Shown one piece after another: positions 37,088 to 54,068 of a DNA stretch of 64,000 bases. How positions within the stretch are numbered: position 1 is the stretch's first letter; each line of letters opens with the position of its first letter. Under the pieces are notes generated by a model. That model was not told where the DNA came from and did not search any database. It saw only the letters and a program-made list of their open reading frames with translations. The stretch spans positions 832,001 to 896,000 of the forward strand of contig NZ_JAQNDL010000002.1 in NCBI RefSeq assembly GCF_028368995.1, read 5' to 3'. A program made the position numbers and the translations under genes. This DNA comes from Nannocystis bainbridge (GTDB lineage Bacteria; Myxococcota_A; Polyangia; Nannocystales; Nannocystaceae).

Positions 37088-37160
37088 GGCGGCAGGGATG
37101 GCGAGCAGGCGCGCAGGCCGGGCTGCGAAGTCGGCGCGCTCACCGGACGCTGGCGCACGA

Positions 37161-37256
37161 GGGATGTCCCCGGTGGGGCATGTCCCCGGGAGCATGTCCC
37201 CGGTGACATGCCCTTGCGGACATGCCCGAAGCGACATGCCCGGTCGGACATGCCCC
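37161..37256. repeat. GGACATGCCC-type mini-array, period 14-15 bp
   Basis: About 7 units of RCATG(T/C)CC between convergent genes. Confidence 0.8.
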
Positions 37257-37261
37257 TTCGT

Positions 37262-38527
37262 TCAGCCGGCGCTGCGACGCAGGCGGGCCAGCTGGGAGTT
37301 GGCGTCGCGGGCGTAGCGGCCGGTCGGGGCCAGCTTCAGGTAGGTCTCGTAGGCGATCACGGCGCCGGCGTCGTCCTTGCCGTGCTGGCGCAGCACGCCG
37401 AGGGTCAGCCAGCAGTCGGCGAGGCTGGGGTCGACCGCCACGCACTTGTCGGCGGTGGTCCGCGACTCCGACATCTTGCCCTGCTCGAGCTGGACCTGGG
37501 CGGTCAGCAGCAGCACCTCGGGGTGCTCGGGCGCCTGCTGCGACAGCTCGGTCAGCGCGGACGAGGCGACCTTGAGCTTGCCGTCCTTGTAGGCGTTCTT
37601 GGCCCGGTCGAGCCGCTCGACGAACGCCGCGTCGGTGGGCGCGGGCGGGGCCGGCTTGGGCGCCTCGACGACCTTGGGCTCGGGCAGCGGCTCGGGCTTG
37701 ACCTCGGGCGCCTTGGCCTCGGCGGGCGGCTCGCCCTGCGTGTCGGCGGCGACCGTGTCGGCCGCGGCCTCGTCGGCGAACAGCGAGTCGCGCATCGCGT
37801 ACACGGCGACCGCGACGATCACCGCGGCCACGGCCCCGATCAGCGGCCACGGCGGGGGCGGGGGCGGGGGCGGTGTGGCGAACAGGTCGTCGTCGCCGCC
37901 GCTGTCGCTGTCGCCCATCGGCTCGGTGGCGCCGAGGAACGCCTGCATGAACTCGTCGGCGGGGCGGGCCTGGAAGGACGGGGGCGGCTCGCTCGGCGGG
38001 GCGGGGATCGGCGCCGAGGCGATCGGCTGGATCGGGGGCGAGGGCGGCGGCGGCGGCGTGGTGCGGATCGGCGAGAGCGCGGGCAGGACGTCGAGATCGA
38101 GGTCACCGCCGAACGAGCCGAACTCGGTCGAGCGGGCCAGCGGATCGCCGCGCCGCTCGGGCTCGGGCTGGCTGGCGCGCGGCTCGACCGACAGCGGCGG
38201 GATGCCGCCGCGCAGGGTCGTCGAGAACACGCTGTCGGGCGCGAGGCTGGCGCTCGGCGGCGGCTCGCTGACGGGCTCGGGGGCTGTCCCCTGGAACATG
38301 TGCGAAAGACCAGACGCGGGCGTGGACTGCGAGGTGTGGCCGAAGTCGCCGAGCGGACGCTCGCCCTCGCCGCGGGTGGGGGCCAGGCTGGCGAACGCGG
38401 CGCTCACGGGCGAGGCGCTCGCAGGCGCGGCTTCGGGTCGCCGCGACGGATCCAGCCACTCACCGCAGAACCGGCACTTGACGGCGACTTCCTGGATCTG
38501 CTCCCCACAGAATGGGCAAGGTTTCAC
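37262..38527 (-). CDS. N-terminal zinc-ribbon, Pro-rich linker, TM, TPR protein; integration target with element-supplied GTG start
   Basis: CPFCGEQIQEVAVKCRFCGEWL; C-terminal TPRs; first codons overlap the left att repeat. Confidence 0.85.
   Translation of the reverse strand: MKPCPFCGEQIQEVAVKCRFCGEWLDPSRRPEAAPASASPVSAAFASLAPTRGEGERPLGDFGHTSQSTPASGLSHMFQGTAPEPVSEPPPSASLAPDSVFSTTLRGGIPPLSVEPRASQPEPERRGDPLARSTEFGSFGGDLDLDVLPALSPIRTTPPPPPSPPIQPIASAPIPAPPSEPPPSFQARPADEFMQAFLGATEPMGDSDSGGDDDLFATPPPPPPPPWPLIGAVAAVIVAVAVYAMRDSLFADEAAADTVAADTQGEPPAEAKAPEVKPEPLPEPKVVEAPKPAPPAPTDAAFVERLDRAKNAYKDGKLKVASSALTELSQQAPEHPEVLLLTAQVQLEQGKMSESRTTADKCVAVDPSLADCWLTLGVLRQHGKDDAGAVIAYETYLKLAPTGRYARDANSQLARLRRSAG
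38503..38526. repeat. Left att repeat
   Basis: CCCCACAGaAtGGgCAAGGTTTCA versus CCCCACAGtAgGGaCAAGGTTTCA at 52551. Confidence 0.85.
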
Positions 38528-38836
38528 TTCACGGGAGATACCTCAAAGCCCCTCCCCGGCCAAGTAGGCCACATTCAGACCCCTTCCGGCGGGACCTTCG
38601 CTCCAGCGCTGCACCAGGAGCATCGCTCGCCCGTCGCTTCCGGCGCCTTCGTCGAAAGCCAGCTGGACCCGGTTCCGTCTGCCCTCCAGGTCACTGGCCC
38701 TTCCGCCAATGAGATCCCGGCCCAGGCGTTCGGCCTGGGCGACGCGCCGGTCGCGCGTCTGTTCGGCGTGAGCCGGAAGCTGGTCACGAGCCGGGTCGGC
38801 AGTCGCCAGGCCGAAAGGAAGGTCGCCCATGGGTGA
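38510..38836 (+). other. 3' part of att-split ORF (C-terminal HTH-like motif); 5' part at 52510-52557
   Basis: Open frame with no ATG of its own, 'VARLFGVSRKLV', stop overlaps next ATG; in frame with RBS/ATG at right element end. Confidence 0.6.
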
Positions 38837-39785
38837 ACCGACCAATCTCGGGCGCTGGATCCTTCGCTCCCTCGATGTTCAAGGGCGCGACCGCGCGCGG
38901 TGCTGCGATGCGGCCATCGCCAGCGAGCTCGATGGCTGGCGCGTGTTGGTGGTCGCGGACGGAGTGTCGAGCCGCGCGCACACGCACTTCGGCGCGCACC
39001 TGACCTCGCGTGTTGCGCTGCGTGCTGCACTTCACCACTTGCTGCGCGGTGGCCCAGTGCGCCTGGTGCCCTCGGCCATTCAAACGGAGGTCGGCGCAGC
39101 GCTCCGTGCTGCTCTCTGTGCGCTGGGGGATGAGGAGGCGCGCCTTGCTCTTCCGTGCACGCTCGTGTTGCTCGTCGTTGGGGCCCAGGAGGCCGCCGCG
39201 TGGTTCTGTGGTGACGGCGATGCTGCGCTCGTCGGGCTGCCCGATGACGTGCAACTGATGCGTCGTGTCGGCCACCCCCCGTCGGGGTTGGCCAACCGCA
39301 CGATGACGACGTCGAAGCTTCATCATGCTGTCGGCGACAGCACCACGGAAGCGCGCGTCATCGCCTCAGAAGATGCCTACGCGGTCCACTGGCGTCGGCG
39401 TGGCGAGGTTGTGTCGGGGTTGCCCTGCTCGTGGGCGTTCCCCGAACAGCGGCCCGCTCAGATGCTGCCCGCCTTCCACGCGATCGGGGATCTGGCGGGG
39501 CTTCGCGGTGCTTTCGTGGCCACGGATGGACTGTCGGAGGAGGGTGCCCAGCTCCTGCTCGCGTCGCCGGCGGTGATGTCGAGCGACCTCCACGAGCGAG
39601 TCCGAGGCGCGTCCGACGACGTGGGCGTTGCGTGGGGGGGCTCGCTGGCCACTCAGGTGCTGCGCGATGCCGCGACGCCGCAGCACGTCGGGGACGAACT
39701 CGAGTTGAGTCTGAGGGCCCTCGGGCTGTCGGACTCCCAACTGCGGTTGGGCCAACCGGAGTTGGCTGAAGAGGAGGACGCGTAA
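38829..39785 (+). CDS. PP2C-family protein phosphatase-like (copy 1)
   Basis: CDA, VVADGVSS, CTL, GDG, VATDGL, DDVGV motifs. Confidence 0.75.
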   Translation: MGEPTNLGRWILRSLDVQGRDRARCCDAAIASELDGWRVLVVADGVSSRAHTHFGAHLTSRVALRAALHHLLRGGPVRLVPSAIQTEVGAALRAALCALGDEEARLALPCTLVLLVVGAQEAAAWFCGDGDAALVGLPDDVQLMRRVGHPPSGLANRTMTTSKLHHAVGDSTTEARVIASEDAYAVHWRRRGEVVSGLPCSWAFPEQRPAQMLPAFHAIGDLAGLRGAFVATDGLSEEGAQLLLASPAVMSSDLHERVRGASDDVGVAWGGSLATQVLRDAATPQHVGDELELSLRALGLSDSQLRLGQPELAEEEDA

Positions 39786-40875
39786 TGCTTGCGCAGAATT
39801 TCCTCTCTCCAGCGCGCAGCAGCGAATACGGCGGGGTGTCTGCGAACGACTCCGTCTATCCTCACCTCGACTCCCCGCTTGATAGCCGCGATCTGGCGTG
39901 GTGCTGCCCAGAATCTCCCACTCTCGGCGAGGCCTGGCTCGCGTTTCTCCAGCACTGCTGGCGTCGCGTTAAGCGCGGCGACATCGCCTACGAACGGTCC
40001 GTCGCTATGCCGACCTCCGCGACCAGCTCGGCGAGCTCGGGGCTCGTCCGGTCGTCGATCTGAAGTCCAGCGAGGCCAACACCTGGCACGAGGTCATCGG
40101 CAACCGGCTTGGCAAGAACACCGGCAAGCCGACTCTGCGGACGGCCGATCTGTGCCGCGACCTCCTCAAGCAAGTCTGCGACTTTGCCGAGCTGCAGGAC
40201 TGGCGCGAGCCGAGGACCAACCCGGTGGTGGTCGTGCCGCGTTTCGGCTCCTCGCCGCGTGACATCCGCCTCGAGCCGTCCGAGTGCCGGCGCGTCCTCG
40301 AGGCCCTGGACGTCATCGAGCGCCGCCGGCTTCGGCGGAACCACAAGGGTGAGCTGCGGCAAGCGACACGAGCTTCGGCCACCCGCCTGATCCGCTGCCT
40401 CTACTTGTGGGCCCGGAGGCCCAAAGAGTTGCAGTACCTGACCTGGGCCCAGGTGGTCGACCTGGACACGGACCAACCGATCGCTCGTCGCATCGCCACC
40501 AAGCGCGGCATTCGCTCCCTCGCTGTGCCGATGCCAGTGGCCCGCATCCTGCGCGAGCAGCATCGCGTCGTTGGCCACCTGTCGCCCCTCGTGTTTCCTT
40601 CCGGCGTCGGCAAGCCGCTGTCGACGTTGTGGCACGTCTGGCACGAGGCGCTGACGATCGCCGAGCTGACGGCCATCCCGCTGTACGGCCTGCGCCACAA
40701 CGCGGCGACCCACCTGATCGAGGCTGGCTTTACCTCGAGACAGGCCAGCGAGGTCCTCGCCAACTCCGAGGAGGTCTTCGACAAGCACTACAACCACGCC
40801 ACGGTCTCGCCGCAAGCGGCGAAGGCCGGGCGTCGTGCCGGCGTGATCATGGCGCGGCTGGGGGGACTCGGATGA
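39785..40875 (+). pseudogene. Tyrosine recombinase/integrase with a 1-nt frameshift near 39985-39990
   Basis: N-part 'PTLGEAW...RGDIA' continues in -1 frame 'LRTVRRYADL...NPV'; catalytic RRPKEL, TKRG, YGLRH, KHY. Confidence 0.8.
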
Positions 40876-41831
40876 ATTCCCTCCGCCCAGCGCCGACGCT
40901 CGCGCATCAAGTCCCGCCACAGGAGGAGGCGCGCCACACCATGTCGCCCTCGCACCTGCGGCGCACCCCTGACGTCCCAACGCAGCGGCCGGACCACGCG
41001 CCGCCGCCCTCGGTTTGGGAACTGAACATGGAGCGCGCCTTCGCGAGTGGCGTCCTCGTTGACGCCGGCGAGCGCCATCTTCGCCACCGGCTCGGCGGCC
41101 AGGACCACGCGCTTGCACTCCGTCATCCTGGGGCCGTCGTCCTGGCGGTCGCGGATGGGGCGAGCCGCGTCGGCAAGCTGCCAAGCCGCGCAGAGGTCGG
41201 CGCGGGCCTGGTCGCGGAGCTGGCGGCGCGGAGCGCCTCTGATGCTGCACTCCGAGGTCTCGGGCCGGCCGAGTTGCGTCTCCACGTGGCCGCACTGCTC
41301 GTGAGGCACTTGCTGCCCCTGTGGGTTGCTCTCGGCGACGGCGCTGGGCCGCTGCTGCACTGCACCCTCGTCCTCGCCGTCAGCACGCCCACCTGGACCA
41401 GCATCTGGCGGATCGGCGACGGCTGCTGGGGGGCGAGCGGAAGCCTCGCGCACGGCTACCGGTCGCCGTCGTCGTCGGCATCTGTTGCCTGCTACGGCAC
41501 GCGGTGGTCGGCTCACGAGCGGCGACAGGTCACCAAGCTCCACACGACGGTCGCGCACCTGTGCAGGAGCGGCGACGTCGAGGTTGTGGCGCGGGGCCTC
41601 GAGCCCGTCCTCGAGGCGGAGGGCCCTGCGTTGACGCTGTACGTCGCAAGTGATGGGCTGGACGAAGAGCCACAAGTCCAGGCGTTGCTGCGGTGCGATC
41701 AGTGGCGAGGCGACCAGTTCACTGGTGCTCTGGCGCGGCCCAACGGGTCCGATGACTTCGCGCTGGCGTGGGCATGCGAACGCTTCCGCGGCGCCGCTGG
41801 TCTGGGCCTTGGCGAAGCGGGGGGAGCGTGA
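40872..41831 (+). CDS. PP2C-family protein phosphatase-like (copy 2)
   Basis: GERH..GQD, AVADGAS, CTL, IGDG, VASDGL, DDFALA; ATGA overlap with integrase stop. Confidence 0.78.
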   Translation: MNSLRPAPTLAHQVPPQEEARHTMSPSHLRRTPDVPTQRPDHAPPPSVWELNMERAFASGVLVDAGERHLRHRLGGQDHALALRHPGAVVLAVADGASRVGKLPSRAEVGAGLVAELAARSASDAALRGLGPAELRLHVAALLVRHLLPLWVALGDGAGPLLHCTLVLAVSTPTWTSIWRIGDGCWGASGSLAHGYRSPSSSASVACYGTRWSAHERRQVTKLHTTVAHLCRSGDVEVVARGLEPVLEAEGPALTLYVASDGLDEEPQVQALLRCDQWRGDQFTGALARPNGSDDFALAWACERFRGAAGLGLGEAGGA

Positions 41832-42217
41832 TGCCGAAGGTCCACATGGACGATGCCGACGGCCTGGTCGGCCCGCCGGAAACCGACGTCCTCGGCGCAG
41901 TGGGTCGCTACCTCGAGCAAAACATCGGCGCACTCGCCCGCCATCAAGTCGCCCTGACGTGCGACCTGGCCCGCGTCCTCACACGCCTGTACTGCAGGAA
42001 GTGCGACGCTCGCCTCGTCTGCAACACATGCGGCGCCTACTACCGGAATTGCACAGGGCCTTGCGCCTGCGGGGACGTCGCCGCCTGCCCGGATTGTGAC
42101 CTGGCGGTCGCTGAGGTCCGCGATCGGGACGGAGCGGTGGTTGGGATGCTGCGTGGGGTCTGCTCCGAGGCGCCCCGCCCGGCGGAGGGCGCCCGCGCCA
42201 AGGAGGTGCTGCCGTGA
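41831..42217 (+). CDS. Cys-rich zinc-finger-like protein
   Basis: CRKC, CNTC, CTGPCAC, CPDC; TGATG coupling. Confidence 0.65.
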   Translation: MPKVHMDDADGLVGPPETDVLGAVGRYLEQNIGALARHQVALTCDLARVLTRLYCRKCDARLVCNTCGAYYRNCTGPCACGDVAACPDCDLAVAEVRDRDGAVVGMLRGVCSEAPRPAEGARAKEVLP

Positions 42218-42492
42218 AGAAGGCCGAACGGAAGCACCACGTGGGCCGGATCCTCGGGTCGCTCGACTATGCGGTCGACCACGACCACGACGACTGGGCA
42301 CGCAGCATCGCACACACGGTCGTGGAGCTCGCGGGCCTCACGCTCGCGGAGGCCAACGCGGCGCGCGTCGCCTGGTACGCCTCCACCGGCAGTTCCCCCC
42401 CCGATGACGAGTCGCCGTTCCTGCGGCCGCTCGTCATCTTCGATGCGAAGTCCCGTCGCTTCGTGTCCATCCGCGACGCGGAGGGGCCGTGA
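42214..42492 (+). CDS. Hypothetical protein
   Basis: AGGAGG RBS, GTGA overlaps at both ends. Confidence 0.7.
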   Translation: MKKAERKHHVGRILGSLDYAVDHDHDDWARSIAHTVVELAGLTLAEANAARVAWYASTGSSPPDDESPFLRPLVIFDAKSRRFVSIRDAEGP

Positions 42493-42725
42493 GCACCCTC
42501 CGCGTGCTTCAACGACTCGCTGTTCGTGCACTCGCGCGGCAGCTCGCACAGCAATGCATCGATGATTCGCAGGCGCTCCTGGCGATCAACCGGGGGCTTG
42601 TCCGTGCGTCTCACGTGCGGGGCGTCAGCCGATGCACCTTCGCTGGCTTCACTGCCGCCAACGAGCCGTGGGCGCAACAGTTGCCGCTCGCTGAACGCGC
42701 CTCCGAGATGGAGACGCAGCAGTGA
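42489..42725 (+). CDS. Hypothetical protein
   Basis: GAGGGG RBS, GTGA overlap. Confidence 0.5.
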   Translation: MSTLRVLQRLAVRALARQLAQQCIDDSQALLAINRGLVRASHVRGVSRCTFAGFTAANEPWAQQLPLAERASEMETQQ

Positions 42726-43732
42726 ACTGTCAGGGGAACGCCGCCCTGCCCATGGGGGGTCGCTGGCGTGACGGCGGGGAGAGACCCGCAACCCTTCCCC
42801 GATTTTGTGGACGGCACGCGGGCGTGCCGGGAGTGATGATGCGTGGACGCTCTACAAGTTCTGGCGAGCCTAACGCGCCGCCAACGAATTGCGCTGGTGC
42901 GTCTCTATCAGCGCCTCTACTGGCCGACACGACGACACCTGCCCAAGCTCGTCGCCTACGGCCTGGTCTTGGCCGGCGAACCAGCAACCCTCACCTCCAA
43001 GGGCCGGACCCTCGCGCGTTCGATCCTGAAGAGTGCCGGCGGTTCGAGGTCTATCTAACCGCCGGCGCCGTCGCTCAGCAGGGCCTCGTCGCTGCTCGCG
43101 AGCTGCACGGGATCCGTCCCGAGCGCTGGGCGGACCTGGGCACTGGGGCCGGCGTCTTCGGCCAGCACGCTCGGCACGTGTGGCCCGCTGCCAAGAGCTG
43201 CGGCTTCGAGATCCGTAAGGCTGAGTCCTTCGCTGGACGCCACTATGACAGCTTCGTCGCCGACGACTACTTCGGCGCCGCGGCGCGCGGGGCCCTGAAG
43301 CGCTACCGGCCCCAGTTGGTGGTCAGCAACCCCCCATACACGAAAGCCCGCGAGACGCTCGCGCTGGGCCTCGATGTCGTCGAGCCGATGGGCCACGTCC
43401 TCCTCCTCCTCCGCAGCACGTTCGGCGGCAGCGAGGCTGACGACGAGCAGCTGCGGCGCTCGCCACCGGTTGACGAGTGGTCCATCCCTGGCCGGCTGAA
43501 GCTGAAGCGAGGGCACGGCCGCACAGGCAGGCCGCTCGGCGGCGACTTCGTGGGACACATCTTCCTGCTCTTCCAGCAGGGCCGCCAGGTGACGGCGCCG
43601 GTCTGGTCGCGCCGTCTGCTGCCGCCGCTTCCGTCAGCGTGGCTCGGCTGGTCGGTGCGCCCTGGTGATGAGGCGTTCACCGCGCCTCTCCCTCACGAAT
43701 TCTGGCCGCTCAAGGAGAACCGTCATGGCTGA
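42722..43732 (+). CDS. Phage-type DNA amino-methyltransferase (start uncertain)
   Basis: Motif I DLGTGAGVF, motif IV SNPPY, LLLR. Confidence 0.75.
   Translation: MNCQGNAALPMGGRWRDGGERPATLPRFCGRHAGVPGVMMRGRSTSSGEPNAPPTNCAGASLSAPLLADTTTPAQARRLRPGLGRRTSNPHLQGPDPRAFDPEECRRFEVYLTAGAVAQQGLVAARELHGIRPERWADLGTGAGVFGQHARHVWPAAKSCGFEIRKAESFAGRHYDSFVADDYFGAAARGALKRYRPQLVVSNPPYTKARETLALGLDVVEPMGHVLLLLRSTFGGSEADDEQLRRSPPVDEWSIPGRLKLKRGHGRTGRPLGGDFVGHIFLLFQQGRQVTAPVWSRRLLPPLPSAWLGWSVRPGDEAFTAPLPHEFWPLKENRHG
42843..43058 (+). CDS. Possible small winged-helix protein overlapping the MTase 5' region
   Basis: 'LTRRQRIAL...LVAYGLV...LTSKGRTL' resembles wHTH wing. Confidence 0.4.
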   Translation: MDALQVLASLTRRQRIALVRLYQRLYWPTRRHLPKLVAYGLVLAGEPATLTSKGRTLARSILKSAGGSRSI

Positions 43733-44243
43733 GATGGATCGCCAGTTGTTCGGCGCAACGGATCGGGAGAACCAGAAGTTGAGCGCCACCGCCCGGCTGC
43801 TGCTGGCGCTGCTCTGGACGTATGCCGACCTCGACGACGCCAAGGCCTATCGAAAATCACGCGGTCAACCGATCCGCCAGGCGCCCAAAGTCGAGGTCCG
43901 CCGCCTGGAGGAGGCCGCCTCGCTCCTGGGCTTCGAGCTCGAGACGATCCGTCGCGCGCTCGATCGGCAGCTCGGTCCCGCCGGATGGGTCCTCCGCACG
44001 AAGGACTCACGCTTTTTAGCGCTGCTCGACCGCGAGCACCGTGACGCCTATCTTGCGGCGAAACACCCATTCGCACCTGTCGTCAAGCGCGATTTGGGAG
44101 CAGATCCCGGACAACGATCCGCGGTAGATCCCGGACAACGATCCGCAGATCCCGGACAGCGATCCGGGATCTGCGGGATGGTTGTCCGCGAGATCCCGGA
44201 TAACCATCCGCTCCATCCTTTAAGGGTCCCAATTGGGTCTTGA
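43725..44243 (+). CDS. HTH replication-initiator-like protein with internal DNA repeats
   Basis: AGGAG RBS; LSATARLLLALL, 'LEEAASLLGFELETIRRAL...GWV'; DPGQRS repeats. Confidence 0.6.
   Translation: MAEMDRQLFGATDRENQKLSATARLLLALLWTYADLDDAKAYRKSRGQPIRQAPKVEVRRLEEAASLLGFELETIRRALDRQLGPAGWVLRTKDSRFLALLDREHRDAYLAAKHPFAPVVKRDLGADPGQRSAVDPGQRSADPGQRSGICGMVVREIPDNHPLHPLRVPIGS
44102..44210. repeat. Iteron-like 20-mers inside the rep-like gene
   Basis: AGATCCCGGA(C/T)A(A/G)C(G/C)ATCCG at 44102, 44126, 44147, 44191 plus inverted partial copies. Confidence 0.85.
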
Positions 44244-44269
44244 GGGTGGGTCCCTTGTATGTTCCTCGC

Positions 44270-45640
<1,371 letters not shown>

Positions 45641-45658
45641 CGCCGCAACACAACTGCT

Positions 45659-46520
45659 CGCGCCCGCGCCCTCTCAGAGCTCCGCTTCCGATCTTTTCTC
45701 TATCGCTTTGGAGATCGTCTCGCGGGCGGTCCCGCCGCCGGGGGCTGCTGCGATCGCGCCGACTCGGCGCGGGTTGCGTCATCTCGTCGAACTCCTGGCG
45801 GAGGGCGAGCCGGCCGCCCGCATCGAGGCCGTGCTCTCAGATGCACCTGCCGTCGTCGCGGAGGTCAACCCGAAGGCCGCGGAGTTCTACGGTCCCGAGA
45901 TGTTCGTCGGCGAACGCTGGTCGCGTTGGTGCAACGATCAGGCGCGGCTTGCAGCGAAGCGTCAGGGCCCAGCGTTGGCGCAGCGGACAGCCCCTGCCTG
46001 CATCGAACCTGCTCGCGTGGATGAGCGCGCCGAGGTCCGGAAGCTCCTCTCGCTCGTCGAGACTCCTCGTGCGCCCAACCTGTGGGAGCAGACCCAAGCA
46101 TCGAGCTTGCCCGCGCACCAGCGAGCGCTCCTGTTTGCGCCTGATGCCGCACGCGATGCAGCTCGGCGCCTTGAGCAACACGCAACGTCGCAAGGACGCG
46201 AGCTAGCGCTGGACGAACTCCGAGCGGCGCTCGCCGCGGTCGCACCGACACTGGAGCCGCCACGACGCCGGACGAGCGAGGACCTCGAGCGCGAGGAAGA
46301 GCTCGAACTTGCCGAGCGAGCGACCGAGCACCAGCGCCGTACCCAGCAGCTCGCGGCGCTCGACGAGGTCGCCCGCCGCGACCCCGCCCAAGCGGTTCTG
46401 CTTTTCCGTTCGCTGCTCGCACGCGGCGACCTCGACGACGTCGAGCAACGACTCGTCGAGCAACGACTCTCGCAACTCTTGCAGCGGCAAGTCGCCGCTG
46501 CGGAGGACGACTCACGATGA
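45659..46520 (+). pseudogene. 3' part of a hypothetical gene interrupted by IS110 (5' part TTG 44233-44255)
   Basis: Removing the IS yields an 885-nt open frame; stop overlaps next ATG (ATGA). Confidence 0.55.
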
Positions 46521-48550
46521 CACGGCGGCGTCAGCTAAGCATTGACGACCTGCTCGAAGGGACAGACATGGCGAGCAAGAGTACCAAGAAGGCACCGACA
46601 AATCGGGCTGCAGCGACTGCGGCCAAGCCCGCCCAGGCGGGCAAACCCAAGTCAGCGAAGCCGACCAAGGCCGCGGCGAAGGTCGCCGAGGAGGAGGCGG
46701 CTTCAGCCATCGCGCCCAGCTGGTGCTACGCGGCAGCGGTTGCGTGCGACCTCGTGCTGCGTGATCTCGAATGGCAGGCAACGCGCCGGGCCAAGTCGCT
46801 GCCGCGATGGGAGGATGGTGGCGTCGTCCCGTGCTTCCTCGCCGTGTTGGTGCGCGAGGGGCCTGGCGTGCTGGAGCGCGTGCACGAGCTGCTGCCGAGC
46901 TGCCCGCGGGACTGGCGTGGGTGGGCCGCCGAACGGGACGCGCTGTTCGAGAAGGCCGGCGTGGTCCTCGACTTCCGCAAGCTGGCCGACCGTCAGGTCG
47001 TCCAGGTGAGCCCGCATCACATCGAGCTCGCCACCGACCCGAAACATTCGATGTTCGACCGGCGCGCCCTCCTGCCGCCCGACCGCGGCTTGGCGGAGTC
47101 GATCAAGGCCGTGGGCGAGGTCGTCGAGGTCCTGCAACTGACGCCGCACGAGGACGAGGACGGCACGACCAGGCTGTACTCGGGGAGCGGGAGTCGGCGC
47201 ACGCAGGCGACCCGCCTGGCGAACCGCCTCCTGCTCGAGGAGTGGATGCAGCAGGTTCGCCGCACCAACGACGGGAAGCGCGCGACGCTGGCGCCGCCGG
47301 TGTTGATTCGGACGGTTCACGCGATGGTCCGGCGAGAAGGCAAGGCGCGCACGGTGGCCGCGGTGGTGGCCAACCAGATGCGGCTCGAGGAGGATCTGAT
47401 CCGCGAGGCGGACGGCGTCGAGCAGCTGCTCGCCGCCGGCTACCGCCTCGAGGACGTTGCAGCTCGCACGGGTAAGAGCCTCCGCACCGTGACGAACCTG
47501 CACAGCCTGAACAAGCTCGCGGCCGAACTGCGCGACGAGGTGACGCAGGGGAAGCTGCCGGCGGTGGTGGCGTACAGGCTGGCCATGGAGCCGTCGAAGA
47601 AACGTCAAGTCGAGGCGGCGCGCGCGACCGACTCCTACAAGACCGGCGGTCCCCGCTGCCAGGCGATCGATTGCTATCTCGCTGGGCAACCGTTGCCCGT
47701 GGTGGCGCCCAAGAAGCCGACGATGGCCAGCCGGACCATCCACGCGGCCGCGGAACGCCTCGCTGCCGCCTCGCTGCCGGCCGAGCTCGGGCCGTTCGTG
47801 CTGATGGCCAAGGCCATGGCCGGCGACCACGATGCGATGGCGGCCCTACCGCCGCAGATCCGTGGCGCCTTCGTGGATCCGGCGAAGCAGGCGAAACAGC
47901 GGCTGCGGTGGCAGGAAGCGGGCTTCGACGAGACCTCGCAGATGGCGTGGATGGCGGCGAGCGACGAGATCGGCCCCGAGCAAGCGAAACGCCTGCAGGG
48001 GGTTGGGGCGCTGCCCGAACACCTGAACCTATCGCCCACGGTTCACCTGCTCGACGAGGTCGAGGAGGAGTCCTGGGGCCTCGCCAGCGACACGGTCACG
48101 CTCGGGAGCCTGCTCGACGACTTCATCATCAATGAGGCGCAAGTCGCAGCCGATGCTGGTCGCGACGGGCAACGCGTCACGACATACGCGGAGCATGAGG
48201 AGCTTCGCTGGAGTCGGCGAGGGTTCACGAGCGAGGAAACGGCCTCGTGGCGCCAGGCGACGCAGACGCCCAGCCTCGAGTCGGGCTGCTCGAGCGAGAT
48301 GGCCGCCGCGTTGCGCGACTCGGGCGTCACGCCCGCGATGCTGCTGCTGGCTCCGACGGGCGACCTCTTGGGGAAGTACGTTGCAAGCTGGGACTTCGAG
48401 ACCAACGAGCGACTCAGTCTGGGTCTGTTCGTGATGGAGGCCGGTCTCGAAGTCGCCGAGGTCCTGAAAGATGCCGCCTCCAGCGACCAGCGCTTCGCTA
48501 CCGGCGGCGAAGCGCTGGCGCTCCTGGAAGCGGAGGACGCGGCCGAATAG
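46517..48550 (+). CDS. ParB/Srx-like domain plus HTH protein
   Basis: LAESIKAVG, GSRRTQA (GxRR patch), ANQMR, 'LEDVAARTGKSLRTVTN..L.KL'. Confidence 0.7.
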   Translation: MTRRRQLSIDDLLEGTDMASKSTKKAPTNRAAATAAKPAQAGKPKSAKPTKAAAKVAEEEAASAIAPSWCYAAAVACDLVLRDLEWQATRRAKSLPRWEDGGVVPCFLAVLVREGPGVLERVHELLPSCPRDWRGWAAERDALFEKAGVVLDFRKLADRQVVQVSPHHIELATDPKHSMFDRRALLPPDRGLAESIKAVGEVVEVLQLTPHEDEDGTTRLYSGSGSRRTQATRLANRLLLEEWMQQVRRTNDGKRATLAPPVLIRTVHAMVRREGKARTVAAVVANQMRLEEDLIREADGVEQLLAAGYRLEDVAARTGKSLRTVTNLHSLNKLAAELRDEVTQGKLPAVVAYRLAMEPSKKRQVEAARATDSYKTGGPRCQAIDCYLAGQPLPVVAPKKPTMASRTIHAAAERLAAASLPAELGPFVLMAKAMAGDHDAMAALPPQIRGAFVDPAKQAKQRLRWQEAGFDETSQMAWMAASDEIGPEQAKRLQGVGALPEHLNLSPTVHLLDEVEEESWGLASDTVTLGSLLDDFIINEAQVAADAGRDGQRVTTYAEHEELRWSRRGFTSEETASWRQATQTPSLESGCSSEMAAALRDSGVTPAMLLLAPTGDLLGKYVASWDFETNERLSLGLFVMEAGLEVAEVLKDAASSDQRFATGGEALALLEAEDAAE

Positions 48551-48626
48551 GCGTAATGCCGGCGAAGGAAGCTGGCGCTGATGCACCAACGCAAACTGAC
48601 GCTCGGCCCGATGGCGAGCGGAATGG

Positions 48627-48989
48627 ATGGAAGACATGGAGTTGACGGAACAGGAGAAAATCTTCGCGCAGAGGCTGAAGGGGGATCCCAACGCCCACGC
48701 CTACTGCCTGCTCGCCGCGGTGCTGCAGGCGATCGCCAATCTCGCGGCATCTCTTGCGACGACCCAGCGACCACGGGCGCAGGTCCATGAGATCGTCGTG
48801 GCGTTAGTCGCCACCATGACGGCGCTCCAGGAGCGGCGTCAGGACTGGTCGGAACAGGCAGGGACGCTCGAGGCGCATCTGGGCGCTTTCATCAAGACGG
48901 TGCCGGATGACCTGAAACCCACCCTGGGCACGTACCTGGCGAAGATCCGCGAGGCGCGGGCGGTGGGCCCCGCAGAAGGCGAGGGGTGA
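48627..48989 (+). CDS. Hypothetical protein
   Basis: Helical ORF with coding-like bias, TGATG coupling downstream. Confidence 0.6.
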   Translation: MEDMELTEQEKIFAQRLKGDPNAHAYCLLAAVLQAIANLAASLATTQRPRAQVHEIVVALVATMTALQERRQDWSEQAGTLEAHLGAFIKTVPDDLKPTLGTYLAKIREARAVGPAEGEG

Positions 48990-49497
48990 TGGCGCGACTC
49001 GAACAGCCGCAGAAGGGACGTCACGTTCAGCTTTCAGAGAAGGCGCCGACTGGGGGACCGCCTCCGGAGGCAACCATGCCCTACCTGCCAATATCGCGTG
49101 AGACACGGCTCCTTCGGAATTCAGAGAGCAGGGCGAGACCGTGAATCGAGAACATGAGTCACCAAACCATCGAGAAGAGCGGTAACGGAGAGCAATCGAG
49201 TAGATCGGACGAGAGCACGGCAAGGCCGTTGGGCGCCGATACGGCGAGTCAGCAATCGTATAGTCCCGTCGAAGTTCTTGCTTCACCTACAGCGGGCCCG
49301 ATCGCCAGGAGCGCCCTGCTGCGGAGCAGAGACAAGGAGCAATCGAGTCGGCGAGGCGAGAGCGCGTCGAGGTCGCCGGGTACCGATGCGGCGAGTCAGC
49401 AAGGGCGTAGTCCCGTCGAAATTCTTGCTGCGCTTGCGGCGATGCCGAGGCGCACTCGCGGGTGGAGTTCGGGCTCGAATCGGGCGAGGAAGGAGGC

Positions 49498-49905
49498 ATG
49501 GATCTGATGGCGACTCAAGCACGAGAGCCCGACCCCGAGACCGCCGAGAAGGCGACGCGTCGCAGCTTCACGCCGGCGTACAAGCGGAAGATCCTCGCGC
49601 AGACCGACCACGCGAGCGATGGGCAGATCGGCGCCATCCTGCGCAAGGAGGGCCTGTACAGCTCGCTGTTGTCGACCTGGAGGCGGCAGCGAGACGAGGG
49701 TACGCTGGGCGCGTTGAAGCCGAAGAAACGCGGACCGAAGCCGAAGCAGGACCCCGAGCAGAAGGAGCTGGAGCGCCTGCGCCGCCGTGTGGCGCAGCTC
49801 GAGCACAAGCTCGAGACGGCGGAGCTGATCATCGATGTCCAAAAAAAAGTCTCGCAATTGCTCGGGATCCCGCTCGCGACGATCGATCCGTCCGAGAAGC
49901 CCTGA
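49498..49905 (+). CDS. IS3 transposase OrfA
   Basis: RRSFTPAYKRKIL, LRKEGLYSS..WR, coiled coil; A8G slippery site 49841-49849. Confidence 0.85.
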   Translation: MDLMATQAREPDPETAEKATRRSFTPAYKRKILAQTDHASDGQIGAILRKEGLYSSLLSTWRRQRDEGTLGALKPKKRGPKPKQDPEQKELERLRRRVAQLEHKLETAELIIDVQKKVSQLLGIPLATIDPSEKP

Positions 49906-51023
49906 TCGCGCAAGCGGACGATCTGTCCGCGAGGACAGGTCTGTCGCGGGCGTGCGAGGCGCTGGGGGTCTCGCGGGCGACCGTGTACCGTCGGCGCCGC
50001 CCTGCGCCGTCGCCGAGCTCGGCGAAGCCGCGGCCGTCGCCACGGGCGCTGAGCGCGGTGGAGCGCCAGGAGGTGCTGGAACTGCTGCACAGCGAGCGCT
50101 TCGTCGACAAGGCGCCCGAGGTCATCGTGCCGATGCTGCTCGACGAGCAGCGCTGGCTATGCAGCGCGCGCACCATGTATCGCCTGCTCGCCGCCGAGGG
50201 CGAGCTCCGCGAGCGCCGGCGACAGCGGCGGCACCCCGAGTACAAGCGCCCCGAGCTGCTGGCGACCGCGCCGAACCAGGTGTGGTCGTGGGACGTCACC
50301 TGGCTGCGGGGACCGACGAAGGGCCAATACTATTACCTGTACGTCCTGCTCGACATCTACAGCCGCTGCGTCGTCGGCTGGACCCTGGCGCGCCGCGAGA
50401 GCGCCGACATCGCTGCGCGCCTGATCCGCGCCGCCTGCGACAAGCAGAACATTCAACCTGACCAATTGACCATCCACGCCGATCGCGGCGCCGTCCCGAC
50501 CTCCCGCGAGCTCGCCGACCTTTACGACGTCCTCGGCGCCCGCCGCTCGCACAGCCGGCCCCACGTCAGCGACGACAATCCGTACTCGGAGGCCCACTTC
50601 AAGACCCTCAAGTATACCCACGACTACCCCGACCGCTTCGCCTCCTACGACCACGCCCACGCCTTCTGCGGCCGCTTCGTCGACGGCTACAACCATCACC
50701 ACCGCCACTCCGGCATCGCCTTCCTGGCGCCCGCCGACGTGCATTACGGCCGCACCGAGGCCATCCTGTCCATCAGGGCTGCCGCCCTCCACGCCGCCTA
50801 CGAAGCCCATCCCGAGCGCTTCGTCCGCGGACTGTCCACGCCGCGCCGGCCTCCCGCCGCGGTCTACATCAACCCACCGCGCCGCCTCGAACGCGGCCTT
50901 CGCGAGTACGACGTCCATGTCCTTTCGGACGGGTGCAGCACGACCGATCCATCCTTTCATCACCACTCCGGCGAAATCTCACAATCACTAAACCCGACCA
51001 ACACCGTGTCTCAAAGTCATTGA
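49847..51023 (+). CDS. IS3 transposase OrfB (DDE), reached by -1 frameshift
   Basis: PNQVWSWDVT, LDIYSR, HADRG, DNPYSEAHFKTLK; start coordinate marks the shift region. Confidence 0.88.
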
Positions 51024-51035
51024 CAGGCTCCGGAC

Positions 51036-51374
51036 ATGACGGGCCGCGACTCCTCTGCGGAGTTCCTCGAGGTGACCTGGGCCTTTCAGGAGTGCGTGCG
51101 GTTGCTCGAGCATCCGGACGCCCCCGTTAGCGACGAGCCGCCGGGCTCGACGTCCGCTGCGGGCATGCCTCCATGGGCGCAAGCAGTCGAGGAGGAGTTC
51201 AACAAGGAGAAGAACGCGCTCCTTGAGGAGTGGCGCCGCGTGAAGCGGGCCGCCACCGCGAGCGAAGCGCTAGAGGGGCTCGGAGCGCTCGCCACGCGAG
51301 CCGAGCGCTACCATCGCGCCGGCCGTGAGGTGGTGGCCGGAGTACGAGTGTTCCGGCGAATGTTCAGCAAGTGA
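51036..51374 (+). CDS. Hypothetical protein, separated from its upstream RBS/5' part by IS3
   Basis: ATG lies in the duplicated CATG; GGAGG-caacc-ATG left at 49066-49078. Confidence 0.55.
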   Translation: MTGRDSSAEFLEVTWAFQECVRLLEHPDAPVSDEPPGSTSAAGMPPWAQAVEEEFNKEKNALLEEWRRVKRAATASEALEGLGALATRAERYHRAGREVVAGVRVFRRMFSK

Positions 51375-51439
51375 CCCTGCTGCGTGGCGCTCGCCACGCG
51401 TGCCGAGCGCTACGTGAGGGACCCGCGGTTACAGCCGCG

Positions 51440-51862
51440 TCAGTCCTTTTGTCGAGTTCTGCCGAAACTGAACGCCCCGCCAGCGATGGAGATCATGGTC
51501 AAAATGATGAGGCCGGTCTCTTTGTCGTAGAAGAGAAGAAGCAGGGCCCCGATAACTAGGACAAGGATGACGGTTCCCGTCACATATAACCGATGCAGCT
51601 GCAGCGCATTTTCCCGCTGCAGGTGCCGGTCCGCGAACTCAAGCTCCTCACGCCCTTGTTCTCTACGCGCTGCGATGTCGGTTTCTGTGACGCGGACCAG
51701 GGGCTGGATCACCATGTCGCGAACCGCGAGCAGCAGGGCGCTCTGCTGTTCGCTCAGCGCAGGGTGGACGCCTTCCTCTTCTGGTTGCAGGACCTCTGGC
51801 GAGTCCTCATCTCCCACGTGCTGCAACGCTTGCTCGTTACTCGTCTTGTTGGGGTCGCTCAC
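51440..51862 (-). CDS. Two-TM membrane protein (DUF2335-like cargo)
   Basis: Acidic N-terminus, helix, two C-terminal TMs, lower GC. Confidence 0.6.
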   Translation of the reverse strand: MSDPNKTSNEQALQHVGDEDSPEVLQPEEEGVHPALSEQQSALLLAVRDMVIQPLVRVTETDIAARREQGREELEFADRHLQRENALQLHRLYVTGTVILVLVIGALLLLFYDKETGLIILTMISIAGGAFSFGRTRQKD

Positions 51863-52083
51863 TTCTTGCTCGGCTCGCTCTTCACGGAGCTCTGGGCACC
51901 GCGTTCATAGCTCTCTGGGCCCCGAATCACTAACCCACCGACTCTCGCTGCGACGTTGCCGATCGTGACCACGACCTGCGCTACCTCGCTTGAATTTTGC
52001 GATTGGAATTGTCCGGACGGAGTGGCAGTCCGGACACGCTCCAGAGCACGCTGGACATCACGCTTGGCGTTGGCGTTTGTCAT
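51859..52083 (-). CDS. Small hypothetical protein
   Basis: AAGGAG RBS before ATG 52083; GTGA overlap with downstream gene. Confidence 0.45.
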   Translation of the reverse strand: MTNANAKRDVQRALERVRTATPSGQFQSQNSSEVAQVVVTIGNVAARVGGLVIRGPESYERGAQSSVKSEPSKK

Positions 52084-52212
52084 GCTCCTTGGACAGTAGC
52101 ACAACCATCAGCGCCGTCTTGTCCCCTGGGTAGGCCATGTCCGCCCGTGACCGAGCTCGAGTTGGCGCTTGGAGTAGGGGGCTGCCTGTGGAGCCATGCA
52201 TAAGCTATGCAC

Positions 52213-52300
52213 AGCGCCCCTAGCGCGATGCAGTAGCGCCCCTAGCGCGATGCAGTAGCGCCCCTAGCGCGATGCAATAGCGCCCCTAGCGCGATGCAGG
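52213..52300. repeat. 4 x 22-bp tandem repeat, iteron-like
   Basis: AGCGCCCCTAGCGCGATGCAGT at 52213, 52235, 52257, 52279 with no spacers. Confidence 0.95.
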
Positions 52301-52369
52301 CGCCTTGGCGAGGACCTCAACGAGACGGCCACCTCGATGAAGACGAGGACGAGGTTGGAGTCGTCCAAT

Positions 52370-52407
52370 AAAACCAAAAAAAGACCCGGTGGGTTGCACC
52401 GGGTCTT
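52370..52407 (-). terminator. Intrinsic terminator facing transcription entering from the right junction
   Basis: Stem AAGACCCGGTG/CACCGGGTCTT with A-run on its left. Confidence 0.8.
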
Positions 52408-52453
52408 CCGAGTCGCGGGTCGCGTCCGCAACTCTTGTCCGCAAATTTATTTT

Positions 52454-52478
52454 GCCCTCTTGATTTTTTCAAGGGGGC
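52454..52478. promoter_or_regulatory. Operator-like palindrome upstream of outward-facing RBS/ATG
   Basis: GCCCTCTTGA-ttttt-TCAAGGGGGC in an AT-rich tract; AGGAG at 52499, ATG at 52510. Confidence 0.5.
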
Positions 52479-52550
52479 CTGGCGTCATGCATCCACACAG
52501 GAGATGCCCATGTCGTCGCGTGACTTGGTCTTCTCCCGGGGTGACCTGTC

Positions 52551-52574
52551 CCCCACAGTAGGGACAAGGTTTCA
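52551..52574. repeat. Right att repeat, next to original host ATG (52575, - strand)
   Basis: Minus strand reads ATG AAA CCT TGT CCC TAC TGT GGG = MKPCPYCG. Confidence 0.85.
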
Positions 52575-52722
52575 TTAGAGCGAGAAGCATACCGGGCCCT
52601 GCGGCCGCGACCCAGCATCGGGGTGATTCGAGCCCGAGTCCTCCCATGAGGAAGGTCTCGCCTATCGCTGCTGCGCGGCGTAATGGCTCTCGGGCAAGCT
52701 GGCTCCGCTCGTTTCTCGGCCC

Positions 52723-53829
52723 ATGAAGCGCGACCACCACCTCTCGTCGTTCCTGCGCAAACCCCCGGCTCGCCTCGATCTGGCGACCTTGCCGACCCCG
52801 GTCGAGCGGGCGCCGTGGCTCGACGCTCCAGGCGCCGCGGTCTACGTCAAGCGCGACGATCAGACCAGCCGACTCTATGGCGGCGGCAAAGTCCGCAAGC
52901 TGGAGTGGCTGCTCGCCAACCCGCCGTACGACGATCGACGTCCGATCCTCTCGGTCGGTGGGATCGGCAGCCACCACCTCGTCGCCCTCGCGCTGCACCT
53001 CCAGGCCCAGGACCGCGAGCTGCACGCGTGGGTGTTCGACCAGGTGCCGACCGAGCACACGCTCGACGATCTGGCGGTGTTGCTGTCGACCGGGGCCAAG
53101 CTGTGGGCCGTGCCGACGCGGCCGGCGCTGCCGCTGGCGTGGCTGGGCTATCGCACGTGGGCGAAGCCGCCGCAGAGCGGGGTCTACATGCCGCCGGGCG
53201 GGACCACCGGGATCGGTTGCCTCGGCTTCGTCGAGGCCGGGCTCGAGCTGGCCCAGCAGGTCAAGGAGGGCCTGCTGCCGGCCCCGCAGGCGCTCTACGT
53301 CACCGGGGGCACGTGCGGCTCGTGTTGTGGGCTGGCGCTCGGGCTGGCGCTCGCGGGCCTGCCGGTGCGCATCCGCGTGGTCTCGGCGCTCGAGCGCCTG
53401 TACCTCGGGACATACTTGCTGAAGCGCACGCTGAACCAGGCCTTCGCCGCCCTGGTGGACGCCGGGCTGCAGCCCGAGCTGGCCGCGCTCGGTCCGGCCG
53501 GGCTGCTCGCGCGCGCCGGCGTGACCTGGTCGATCGATCACTCGCAGGTCGGCTCCGGATACGCCGTGCCGACCACGGCCGGGCAGGAGGCGGTGGACCT
53601 GGCCGCGGGCGGCGGGCTCGAGCTCGAGACGACCTATACCGGCAAGTGCCTGGCCGCGCTGCGTCGCGACCTCGCGGCCGGCGAGGTCGCGGGGCCGGTG
53701 CTGTTCTGGGACACCCACGGGGCCACCGACCTGCGGCCGCACATCGTCGCCGGCTGGCAGGCGCGCGTGCCCCTGGCGCTGCGGCGGCGACTGATCCGCG
53801 CCGGCGCGGCCCTGCCGGCCGCGCGCTGA
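52723..53829 (+). CDS. ACC deaminase/D-cysteine desulfhydrase family PLP enzyme
   Basis: LPTPV, VKRDD, GGGKVRKL, GGIGSHH, LETTYTGK. Confidence 0.85.
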   Translation: MKRDHHLSSFLRKPPARLDLATLPTPVERAPWLDAPGAAVYVKRDDQTSRLYGGGKVRKLEWLLANPPYDDRRPILSVGGIGSHHLVALALHLQAQDRELHAWVFDQVPTEHTLDDLAVLLSTGAKLWAVPTRPALPLAWLGYRTWAKPPQSGVYMPPGGTTGIGCLGFVEAGLELAQQVKEGLLPAPQALYVTGGTCGSCCGLALGLALAGLPVRIRVVSALERLYLGTYLLKRTLNQAFAALVDAGLQPELAALGPAGLLARAGVTWSIDHSQVGSGYAVPTTAGQEAVDLAAGGGLELETTYTGKCLAALRRDLAAGEVAGPVLFWDTHGATDLRPHIVAGWQARVPLALRRRLIRAGAALPAAR

Positions 53830-54068
53830 CCACGGCGCGCCCGCGGTCGGACGGACGATCGCACATGCCCCGAAGGGCATGTCGCACAGGACATGTCCGA
53901 AGGGGCAGCACGGTCGATGGCCAGGGCAGGACCGTCCTCGGCGGCCGGAGGCGGTCGGGCGGGGTCGAGCTCCGGATCCGGCCGTCCTCGGCGGCCGGCG
54001 GCCGTCCGGGCCCGGCAGAACGGTTTGTGCTTGCGCCGGGGGGGCCTTCGGGTCAATGTCCGGCCGCC

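Follow-up and report, generated by a model that had tools for sequence, protein, structure and literature searches.

In the skin/sigK and comK systems, the state of a host gene depends on an element at an attachment (att) site inside it, the coding sequence (CDS) being interrupted, and SXT is said, from the work of Hochhut and Waldor in 1999, to supply a new promoter and 5′ coding end. SXT/R391 elements integrate in the 5′ end of prfC (PMC2791158), and the mycobacteriophages BPs, Brujita and Charlie carry attP inside an open reading frame (ORF) that lies just upstream of int under the same promoter, with integration both altering the product and parting int from the promoter (PMC3694055). In the BPs type, attP lies near the 3′ end of the repressor gene, where integration deletes a degradation tag and switches the repressor on (PMC3694055). 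In Mx8, attP lies within the integrase gene intP itself (PMC6070905, PMC4383910), and the SSV-type 'suicidal' integrases likewise have attP within their own gene; integrases disrupting their own gene are stated to be known only from archaea (PMC8371274). ICEclc carries at its far end the outward-facing start signals of Pcirc, which come to lie upstream of the integrase gene in the circular form alone; the promoter by itself is fused, and int also has a promoter of its own (PMC5812530). Among titles, abstracts and the text of Islander, only the BPs-type, Mx8 and SSV cases were recognized as attP sites lying within or across genes, and a literature search for Nannocystis genomic islands with an integrase found no papers. 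Here we describe an integrated island of 14.0 kb, extending from approximately 38527 to 52550 of a 64,000-nucleotide stretch of the Nannocystis bainbridge genome (contig NZ_JAQNDL010000002.1, positions 832,001 to 896,000; hereafter the window, whose numbering is used throughout). On one strand its att core codes for a host protein's N-terminus, and on the other it plausibly forms part of the first cistron of the island's own integrase operon.

The island is bounded by two copies of a repeat and flanked by two host genes, one encoding a protein with zinc (Zn)-ribbon and TPR domains and the other a pyridoxal phosphate (PLP)-dependent enzyme:

38503-38526, no strand: attL core, a direct-repeat copy that overlaps the single attB copy of the related genome G001.
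52551-52574, no strand: attR core, the other direct-repeat copy.
37262-38527, minus strand: host Zn-ribbon/TPR gene, 421 aa (Pfam TPR families and Zn_Ribbon_1; G+C at third codon positions 0.95), with an island-derived GTG start.
52723-53829, plus strand: PLP-dependent enzyme gene, the right-hand host neighbor (Pfam PALP; orthologues 88-92% identical).

A first-pass annotation of this DNA had reported a 21/24-bp direct repeat at 38503 and 52551, had noted that both copies encode the same N-terminus on the minus strand, and had interpreted them as att sites. All three claims held up. Alignment of 38503-38526 with 52551-52574 gave identity at 21 of 24 positions, the chance expectation for such a 24-bp repeat was 0 over 100 dinucleotide-preserving shuffles, and a degenerate pattern of the core matched just twice in the whole 11.05-Mb genome, at the two att cores, as compared to 0 matches for a reversed control. 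On the minus strand, the left copy reads from GTG 38527 into VKPCPFCGEQ... and the right copy from ATG 52575 into MKPCPYCGG..., and the G+C content falls from ∼0.75 outside of the repeats to 0.60-0.71 between them. In the minus-strand frame, each of the three mismatches is either synonymous or conservative, as between paralogues or orthologues, which would suit a repeat that reflected chance or the paralogy of two Zn-ribbon N-termini (MKPCPxCG) with no mobile element involved. That explanation is refuted by related genomes in which a single copy joins both flanks exactly, and we regard it as virtually impossible, given also a second island bounded by a perfect repeat of this core, an integrase beside attL, the dip in G+C between the copies, and a core pattern that occurs only twice in 11 Mb.

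The relatives compared comprised 41 genomes, including 10 of the same genus, with the genome of the window itself designated G000. The Zn-ribbon/TPR protein was matched in 34 of the 41 and the PLP-enzyme protein in 38. The two genes are divergent neighbors, 134-195 bp apart, in seven of the ten congeners (G001, G003, G005, G006, G007, G008 and G009), with G002 and G004 too fragmented for an adjacency call, and they lie on one contig less than 1 kb apart in seven genomes from other genera of the family (G013, G014, G016, G017, G019, G021 and G024), making 14/41 in total. Their spacing is 14.2 kb in the window and 31.0 kb in G010. At the base level, the left and right flanks of the window overlap in G001 by exactly the 24-bp core, and a single attB copy joining both flanks was read in four genomes (G001, G003, G005 and G007). 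The empty site has the ATG joined to GAGCAGATCCAG, divergent from the PLP-enzyme gene, as had been predicted for relatives that lack the element. The 24-bp repeats are attL and attR of an integrated 14.0-kb tyrosine-integrase island. In G007 (G007:C2:3356670-3359199; L009 and L018), the PLP-enzyme and Zn-ribbon/TPR genes each match in several pieces and different frames, and attB lacks one C of the core; this genome is 80% complete and may be affected by numerous frameshifts or errors of assembly.

The crossover may have taken place in either CAAGGTTTCA or CCCCACAG. Exchange in CAAGGTTTCA would mean that the three attR variants derive from attP, while exchange in CCCCACAG would make them this strain's own attB polymorphisms, with the 87.5% identity of the cores fitting the 85-90% seen in the host flanks. 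The plus-strand frame discussed below holds for either, as the first-pass annotation had stated.

G010 carries a 31-kb insert at the same core, bounded by a perfect 23-bp repeat. This insert is syntenic with the window from 38.5 to 49 kb at ∼69% nucleotide identity, whereas the host flanks are 85-90% identical, a difference most simply explained by separate insertions. The two islands are evidently diverged members of one family. Conservation between them is higher around the att core than in the island body: a left-end blastn block (38278-38619) is 82.7% identical as compared to ∼69%, and the conserved attP span comprises ∼200 bp of the right end, the 24-bp core and ∼100 bp of the left end, including both arms:

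38528-38625, no strand: P′ arm of attP, conserved in alignment with the G010 island.
52376-52550, no strand: P arm of attP, 84% identical to the G010 island; this DNA was found in 2 of the 41 genomes.

Within the P arm, GTCCGCAA occurs twice, 13 bp apart (52424-52444), and G010 has GTCCCCAA and GTCCGCAA; they are candidates for arm-type binding by the integrase. Just inside the right end, but outside of the block conserved with G010, the 22-bp unit AGCGCCCCTAGCGCGATGCAGT is present at 52213-52299 as four tandem copies by coordinates, 98-100% alike, which the repeat scan listed as three overlapping 43-nt copies.

An integrase with a tyrosine-recombinase catalytic domain (Pfam Phage_integrase; PHROG 1 for its G010 orthologue) is encoded 1.26 kb from attL. 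No capsid, terminase or conjugation families were found in the scanned ORFs of either island, and none of the 20 PHROG-scanned ORFs of both islands matched a phage structural family. The element is a tyrosine-recombinase integrative island. The possibility that the G010 island is a prophage was considered and rejected, as its 10 scanned ORFs contain no capsid, terminase or tail family. The island family is rare. Its integrase was found in 2 of 73 genomes of the bacterial family and 2 of 401 of the class, among 401 sampled from the phylum in that of the window alone, and in a search of genome contigs only on the G010 contig; a search of viral contigs found none. Among 8000 candidates scored from 5.8 billion proteins, only five reached E<=1e-10, two of which are the G010 and window copies; three metagenomic integrases (P0002-P0004) are 54-57% identical to the island integrase. 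Another integrase from a metagenome contig, L031, is only 25% identical and was set aside as unrelated. In a search of sequencing runs, no RNA run was matched, and two metagenome runs alone shared 5-7% of the words.

The consequences of integration for the host gene can be read directly from the two islands. The att core corresponds to codons 1-8 of the Zn-ribbon/TPR gene, whose orthologues in G001, G005 and G010 are 81-83% identical over residues 1-421, and the CDS is whole, with a GTG start, in both G000 and G010. Because the first island base past the core is a C in both islands, the host start codon ATG becomes GTG. The left end of the island swaps the start base of the host gene and everything upstream of it. 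The native ATG and the conserved DNA preceding it now lie 14 kb away at attR, where the following features are found:

52576-52722, no strand: native divergent intergenic (promoter) region between the host gene and the PLP-enzyme gene, 147 bp, conserved.
52447-52575, minus strand: stub headed by the native host ATG, 42 codons; the G010 stub is of equal length with the same stop.
52379-52409, minus strand: intrinsic-terminator-like hairpin and T-run reading leftward, ∼35 nt past the stub, kept in G010 with one compensatory pair.

The earlier description of the integrated state, with the native ATG and upstream region stranded at attR and an element-derived GTG in their place, applies to both islands, and the TATGCT box that it placed 10 nt before ATG 52575 is kept in 5/5 aligned relatives (the four empty sites and attR of G010). 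Its likening of the locus to sigK and comK, as host genes restored by excision, did not stand, since the host CDS is uninterrupted here and only the promoter and start codon are exchanged. Conservation of the hairpin and T-run suggests that read-in from the host promoter is probably halted at the island edge, and a terminator function for the stub region at attR is likewise probable; the native host promoter would then be left driving a terminated stub, a role assigned from these sequence features. A consensus scan of 38300-39000 found no promoter on either strand, although such scans cover myxobacterial promoters poorly. A TTGGCC-17-TATCTC motif, common to both islands 6-7 nt before the GTG, falls below the scan threshold and is offered as a lead only.

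Also at the right end, on the minus strand, a promoter-like TTGAAA-17-TAAATT (9/12 matches) lies ∼30 nt upstream of the terminator hairpin (52472-52379). G010 retains both site and hairpin, each of two predicted stems showing a single compensatory pair, and the P arm may encode a small RNA of ∼60 nt, antisense to the region upstream of the Shine-Dalgarno (SD) sequence described next.

On the plus strand, the two ends of the island carry the parts of a putative first cistron, followed at the left end by three genes of the integrase operon:

52499-52578, plus strand: 5′ part of the putative first cistron, with SD sequence AGGAG (52499-52503) and ATG 52510; a 22-codon stub when integrated, ending at TAG 52576-52578.
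38528-38836, plus strand: 3′ part of the putative first cistron, in a frame favored by GC frame plot and codon model, with no canonical start before GTG 38768.
38829-39785, plus strand: PP2C-family phosphatase gene, 318 aa (Pfam PP2C_2, E 6.3e-14).
39785-40875, plus strand: tyrosine integrase gene, broken (Pfam Phage_integrase; two-frame match to an intact 363-aa orthologue in G010).
40872-41831, plus strand: second PP2C_2-like gene (Pfam PP2C_2, E 2e-10), whose ATG overlaps the integrase stop (ATGA).

The junctions within this operon are all stop-start overlaps (ATGGGTGA, TAATG and ATGA). When the island ends were joined in a script, the result was an ORF of 124 codons in the window and 105 codons in G010. 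The window ORF stops at 38834-38836, overlapping the PP2C ATG at 38829 (ATGGGTGA at 38829-38836), and the G010 ORF also overlaps the next start with its stop (ATGA at 88311-88314), even though its 3′ half and next gene are unrelated to those of the window. These joins reproduced the 124-codon frame and PP2C overlap of the first-pass annotation, and the 22-aa stub that it predicted from AGGAG and ATG 52510 was read as 22 codons to the TAG. No in-frame ATG, GTG or TTG occurs between 38336 and GTG 38768, which lies 22 codons before the stop. The AGGAG and an ATG opening the peptide MSSRD are kept at the right end of both islands, although the SD spacing and the bases between SD and ATG differ. 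The annotation's expectation that related elements would conserve the frame across attP was borne out by G010, the only related element found: it carries an extra base ahead of the core and lacks one behind it, two differences that cancel out and leave the frame intact even though the codons within the core fall in another phase. In both islands, a codon-usage model trained on the Pfam-supported island genes ranked this frame first, by 15-50 log units over four phases, and by 2.8 (window) and 1.5 (G010) log units over the antisense frame. Taken together, these features make it somewhat probable that the plus-strand ORF across attP is real.

If so, the operon would run in the order first cistron, PP2C gene, int, second PP2C-like gene, with the first cistron passing through attP. 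The SD, ATG, first 14-22 codons and presumably the promoter would lie at the right end of the island and the remaining operon at the left, so that integration would part the int operon from its start signals and circularization would rebuild it, favoring expression of the operon, including the integrase, in the excised form and quieting it in the chromosome. We lean toward the view that the int operon is cut from its start signals by integration and rebuilt by circularization. The first cistron may serve to carry ribosomes or transcription across attP instead of acting as a folded protein, since a leader cistron would suit a frame maintained without its sequence, and the stop-start overlaps, better than a folded regulator would. 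With the host gene fixing the sequence of the core, the island would be left to keep only frame continuity through it, as the compensating indels suggest. The full proposal is that of a topology-gated operon, in which the att core is read both ways, as a host-protein N-terminus on one strand and as leader-cistron codons of the island on the other, the operon is reached only in the circular form, and a 5′-split element gene is coupled to exchange of the host promoter and start codon. We advance it tentatively, as a possibility falling somewhat short of an even chance.

Several observations weigh against a split first cistron. Only two islands are available, and frame agreement alone has a chance of about 1 in 3. 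An ordinary attP with its arms would be about as long as the conserved ∼300 bp, and within this stretch the eight differences in a 57-nt ungapped conserved block are distributed 3/2/3 over codon positions 1/2/3, giving no sign of protein-level selection. The two ORFs are alike over only ∼50 residues, with the C-terminal two thirds unconserved and no similarity in any frame past that point. A word search of the left-end part (102 aa) against 5.8 billion proteins yielded three candidates, none at E<=0.01, so the annotation's proposed search for homologs of the fused ORF came back empty for this part; Pfam at E<=1 gave no match for it, for the antisense ORF or for the G010 counterpart, and a protein atlas gave no usable match (recognition 1815). 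A single-sequence AlphaFold2 model was coil (pLDDT, the predicted local distance difference test score, 57.7; pTM, the predicted template modeling score, 0.11), which for an orphan protein is a weak test. The helix-turn-helix-like motif that the annotation saw in the fused protein found no counterpart in the Pfam, atlas or AlphaFold2 results. The antisense frame is open in both islands and nearly equal in the codon model, and the consensus scan, with its poor coverage of myxobacterial promoters, found no plus-strand promoter near 52376-52510. The left-end part in G010 has in-frame ATGs at 88147 and 88177 and so is not startless, and the next cistrons carry SD-like sequences of their own.

Many of these points would be accounted for if the att sites and island are real but no gene crosses attP, with the conserved blocks being attP arms, the 300 bp before the PP2C gene being arm plus leader or promoter, and the SD and ATG heading a short meaningless ORF. 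The ∼200 + 24 + 100 bp of conservation is typical of attP in size, the block lacks third-position bias, the ORF halves are unrelated past ∼50 residues, the ORF is an orphan with no predicted fold, and long open frames are common at this G+C. This alternative does not readily explain why per-codon periodicity in the codon model resembles that of the island's Pfam-supported genes, why the SD is kept despite local change, why two compensating indels restore the frame, or why, with unrelated 3′ halves, both ORFs end in an overlap with the following start codon, and we judge it rather unlikely, if a serious contender.

The near-equality of the antisense frame raises another possibility, namely that the coding signal at 38546-38830 comes from a 95-codon island gene on the minus strand, starting at ATG 38830 and ending 15 nt before the host GTG, and that the island transcribes into the host gene, keeping it expressed. 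The codon-model margin of 2.8 or 1.5 log units below the plus frame is small, the antisense frame ends at the same TGA just before the GTG in both islands, and the subthreshold TTGGCC-17-TATCTC motif before the GTG is kept in both. The plus frame nevertheless scores higher in both islands, the two antisense products share only their last ∼12 residues and have no Pfam match, the ATG lies back-to-back with that of the PP2C gene, leaving no room for a promoter, and the scan of 38300-39000 was empty on either strand. We therefore consider such a gene very unlikely, and retain the split first cistron as the plausible reading.

Whether the window's copy could switch at all is a separate matter. Its integrase matches the intact 363-aa G010 orthologue as residues 1-71 and 70-363 in different frames, and DNA alignment attributes the break to a 1-nt deletion near 39993 relative to G010. 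Two insertion sequences (ISs) have also entered the island. The IS110-family element interrupts synteny with G010 and has two further genomic copies that are 99-100% identical, while the other, with an rve-type transposase, recurs on contig 2 (100% identical) and on contig 1 (87% identical). The integrase frameshift and the two host IS insertions make a working switch in this genome unlikely. On balance, we favor the view that the window's island is decaying and probably locked in, with any switching being a matter for intact relatives, the G010 island among them. It is doubtful that the island can excise, and thereby switch, in this genome unless another integrase acts in trans or the frameshift proves to be an error of assembly.

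Beyond the int operon, several ORFs with no assigned function lie between the second PP2C_2-like gene and a ParB-like gene, and the remaining features of the island are:

44248-45671, plus strand: IS110-family insertion sequence (Pfam DEDD_Tnp_IS110 and Transposase_20), absent here in the G010 island.
46517-48550, plus strand: ParB-like helix-turn-helix protein, 677 aa, a conserved island core gene (Pfam HTH_ParB, PHROG 1033), syntenic with G010.
49079-51032, plus strand: second insertion sequence, with an rve-type transposase (Pfam rve).

Just upstream of the IS110-family element, 44102-44211 holds four copies of a 21-bp unit (AGATCCCGGACAACGATCCGC). An Rfam search over 37000-54000 gave only a subthreshold Cyano-2 match (23.7 bits as compared to a gathering score of 40), which overlaps these copies and is taken as chance. 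The left part of the rve-type element contains two 125-nt direct repeats (49177-49448), 73% identical and 147 nt apart. The island adds two PP2C-type phosphatase genes beside a kinase-rich neighborhood, where the gene for an 883-aa fusion of a Ser/Thr protein kinase with TPR repeats (34436-37087, plus strand) is convergent with the host Zn-ribbon/TPR gene. The G010 island (L025 and L026, G010:C2:96800-118700) has ∼22 kb of extra cargo, which encodes among others a 671-aa trypsin-like protease bearing PDZ and ChaB domains, a 718-aa alpha/beta-hydrolase-like protein and a transposase. In its interval from attL to int, two ORFs of 184 aa (Cys-rich) and 261 aa take the place of the window's PP2C gene.

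In sum, the att reading is confirmed, the split-gene reading is plausible, and a host-gene switch in this genome appears unlikely from the state of its island. If the split cistron is true, the DNA state, integrated or circular, would directly set transcription and translation of the int operon with no dedicated repressor, providing a minimal route that favors reintegration after excision and stability after integration. A topology-gated operon, if true, would represent a bacterial element gene split at its 5′ end, distinct from the 3′-split repressor of BPs and from the self-splitting integrases of archaea. An att core under two coding constraints at once would also offer a searchable readout in other islands, namely a frame kept without its sequence. 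On the host side, the locus provides a clean replacement of promoter and start codon at a conserved gene in little-studied, large-genome myxobacteria. The practical weight is modest, with the family present in 2/401 class genomes and the window's copy looking dead.

Set against the described systems, the locus would resemble the BPs type in having attP within a putative ORF of the int operon, upstream of int, although here a PP2C gene intervenes. Unlike that type, the core would occupy codons 14-22 of an orphan ORF, of which no more than a stub is left upon integration, and no repressor fold, divergent cro or phage structural genes were found in the island. As with Pcirc of ICEclc, circularization would join start signals at the far end to the int operon, but here the fusion would also include a coding frame, from the SD and ATG to the first codons, with the SD and ATG conserved and the promoter putative. 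The host side recalls SXT and prfC, as a tyrosine-integrase element sits in the 5′ end of a conserved protein-coding gene that stays whole, while the integrase family, host gene and phylum all differ. As in SSV and Mx8, attP would fall within an element gene that is split or altered by integration, but the core (38503-38526) lies 1.26 kb upstream of the int start at 39785, in another cistron. Unlike skin/sigK and comK, the host CDS is complete when integrated, with only the start codon and upstream region changing. Each ingredient therefore has a precedent, while the combination, as read from these two islands, appears to be new: an att core coding on both strands, a 5′-split first cistron of an int operon, and a swap of host promoter and start codon, all at a single site.

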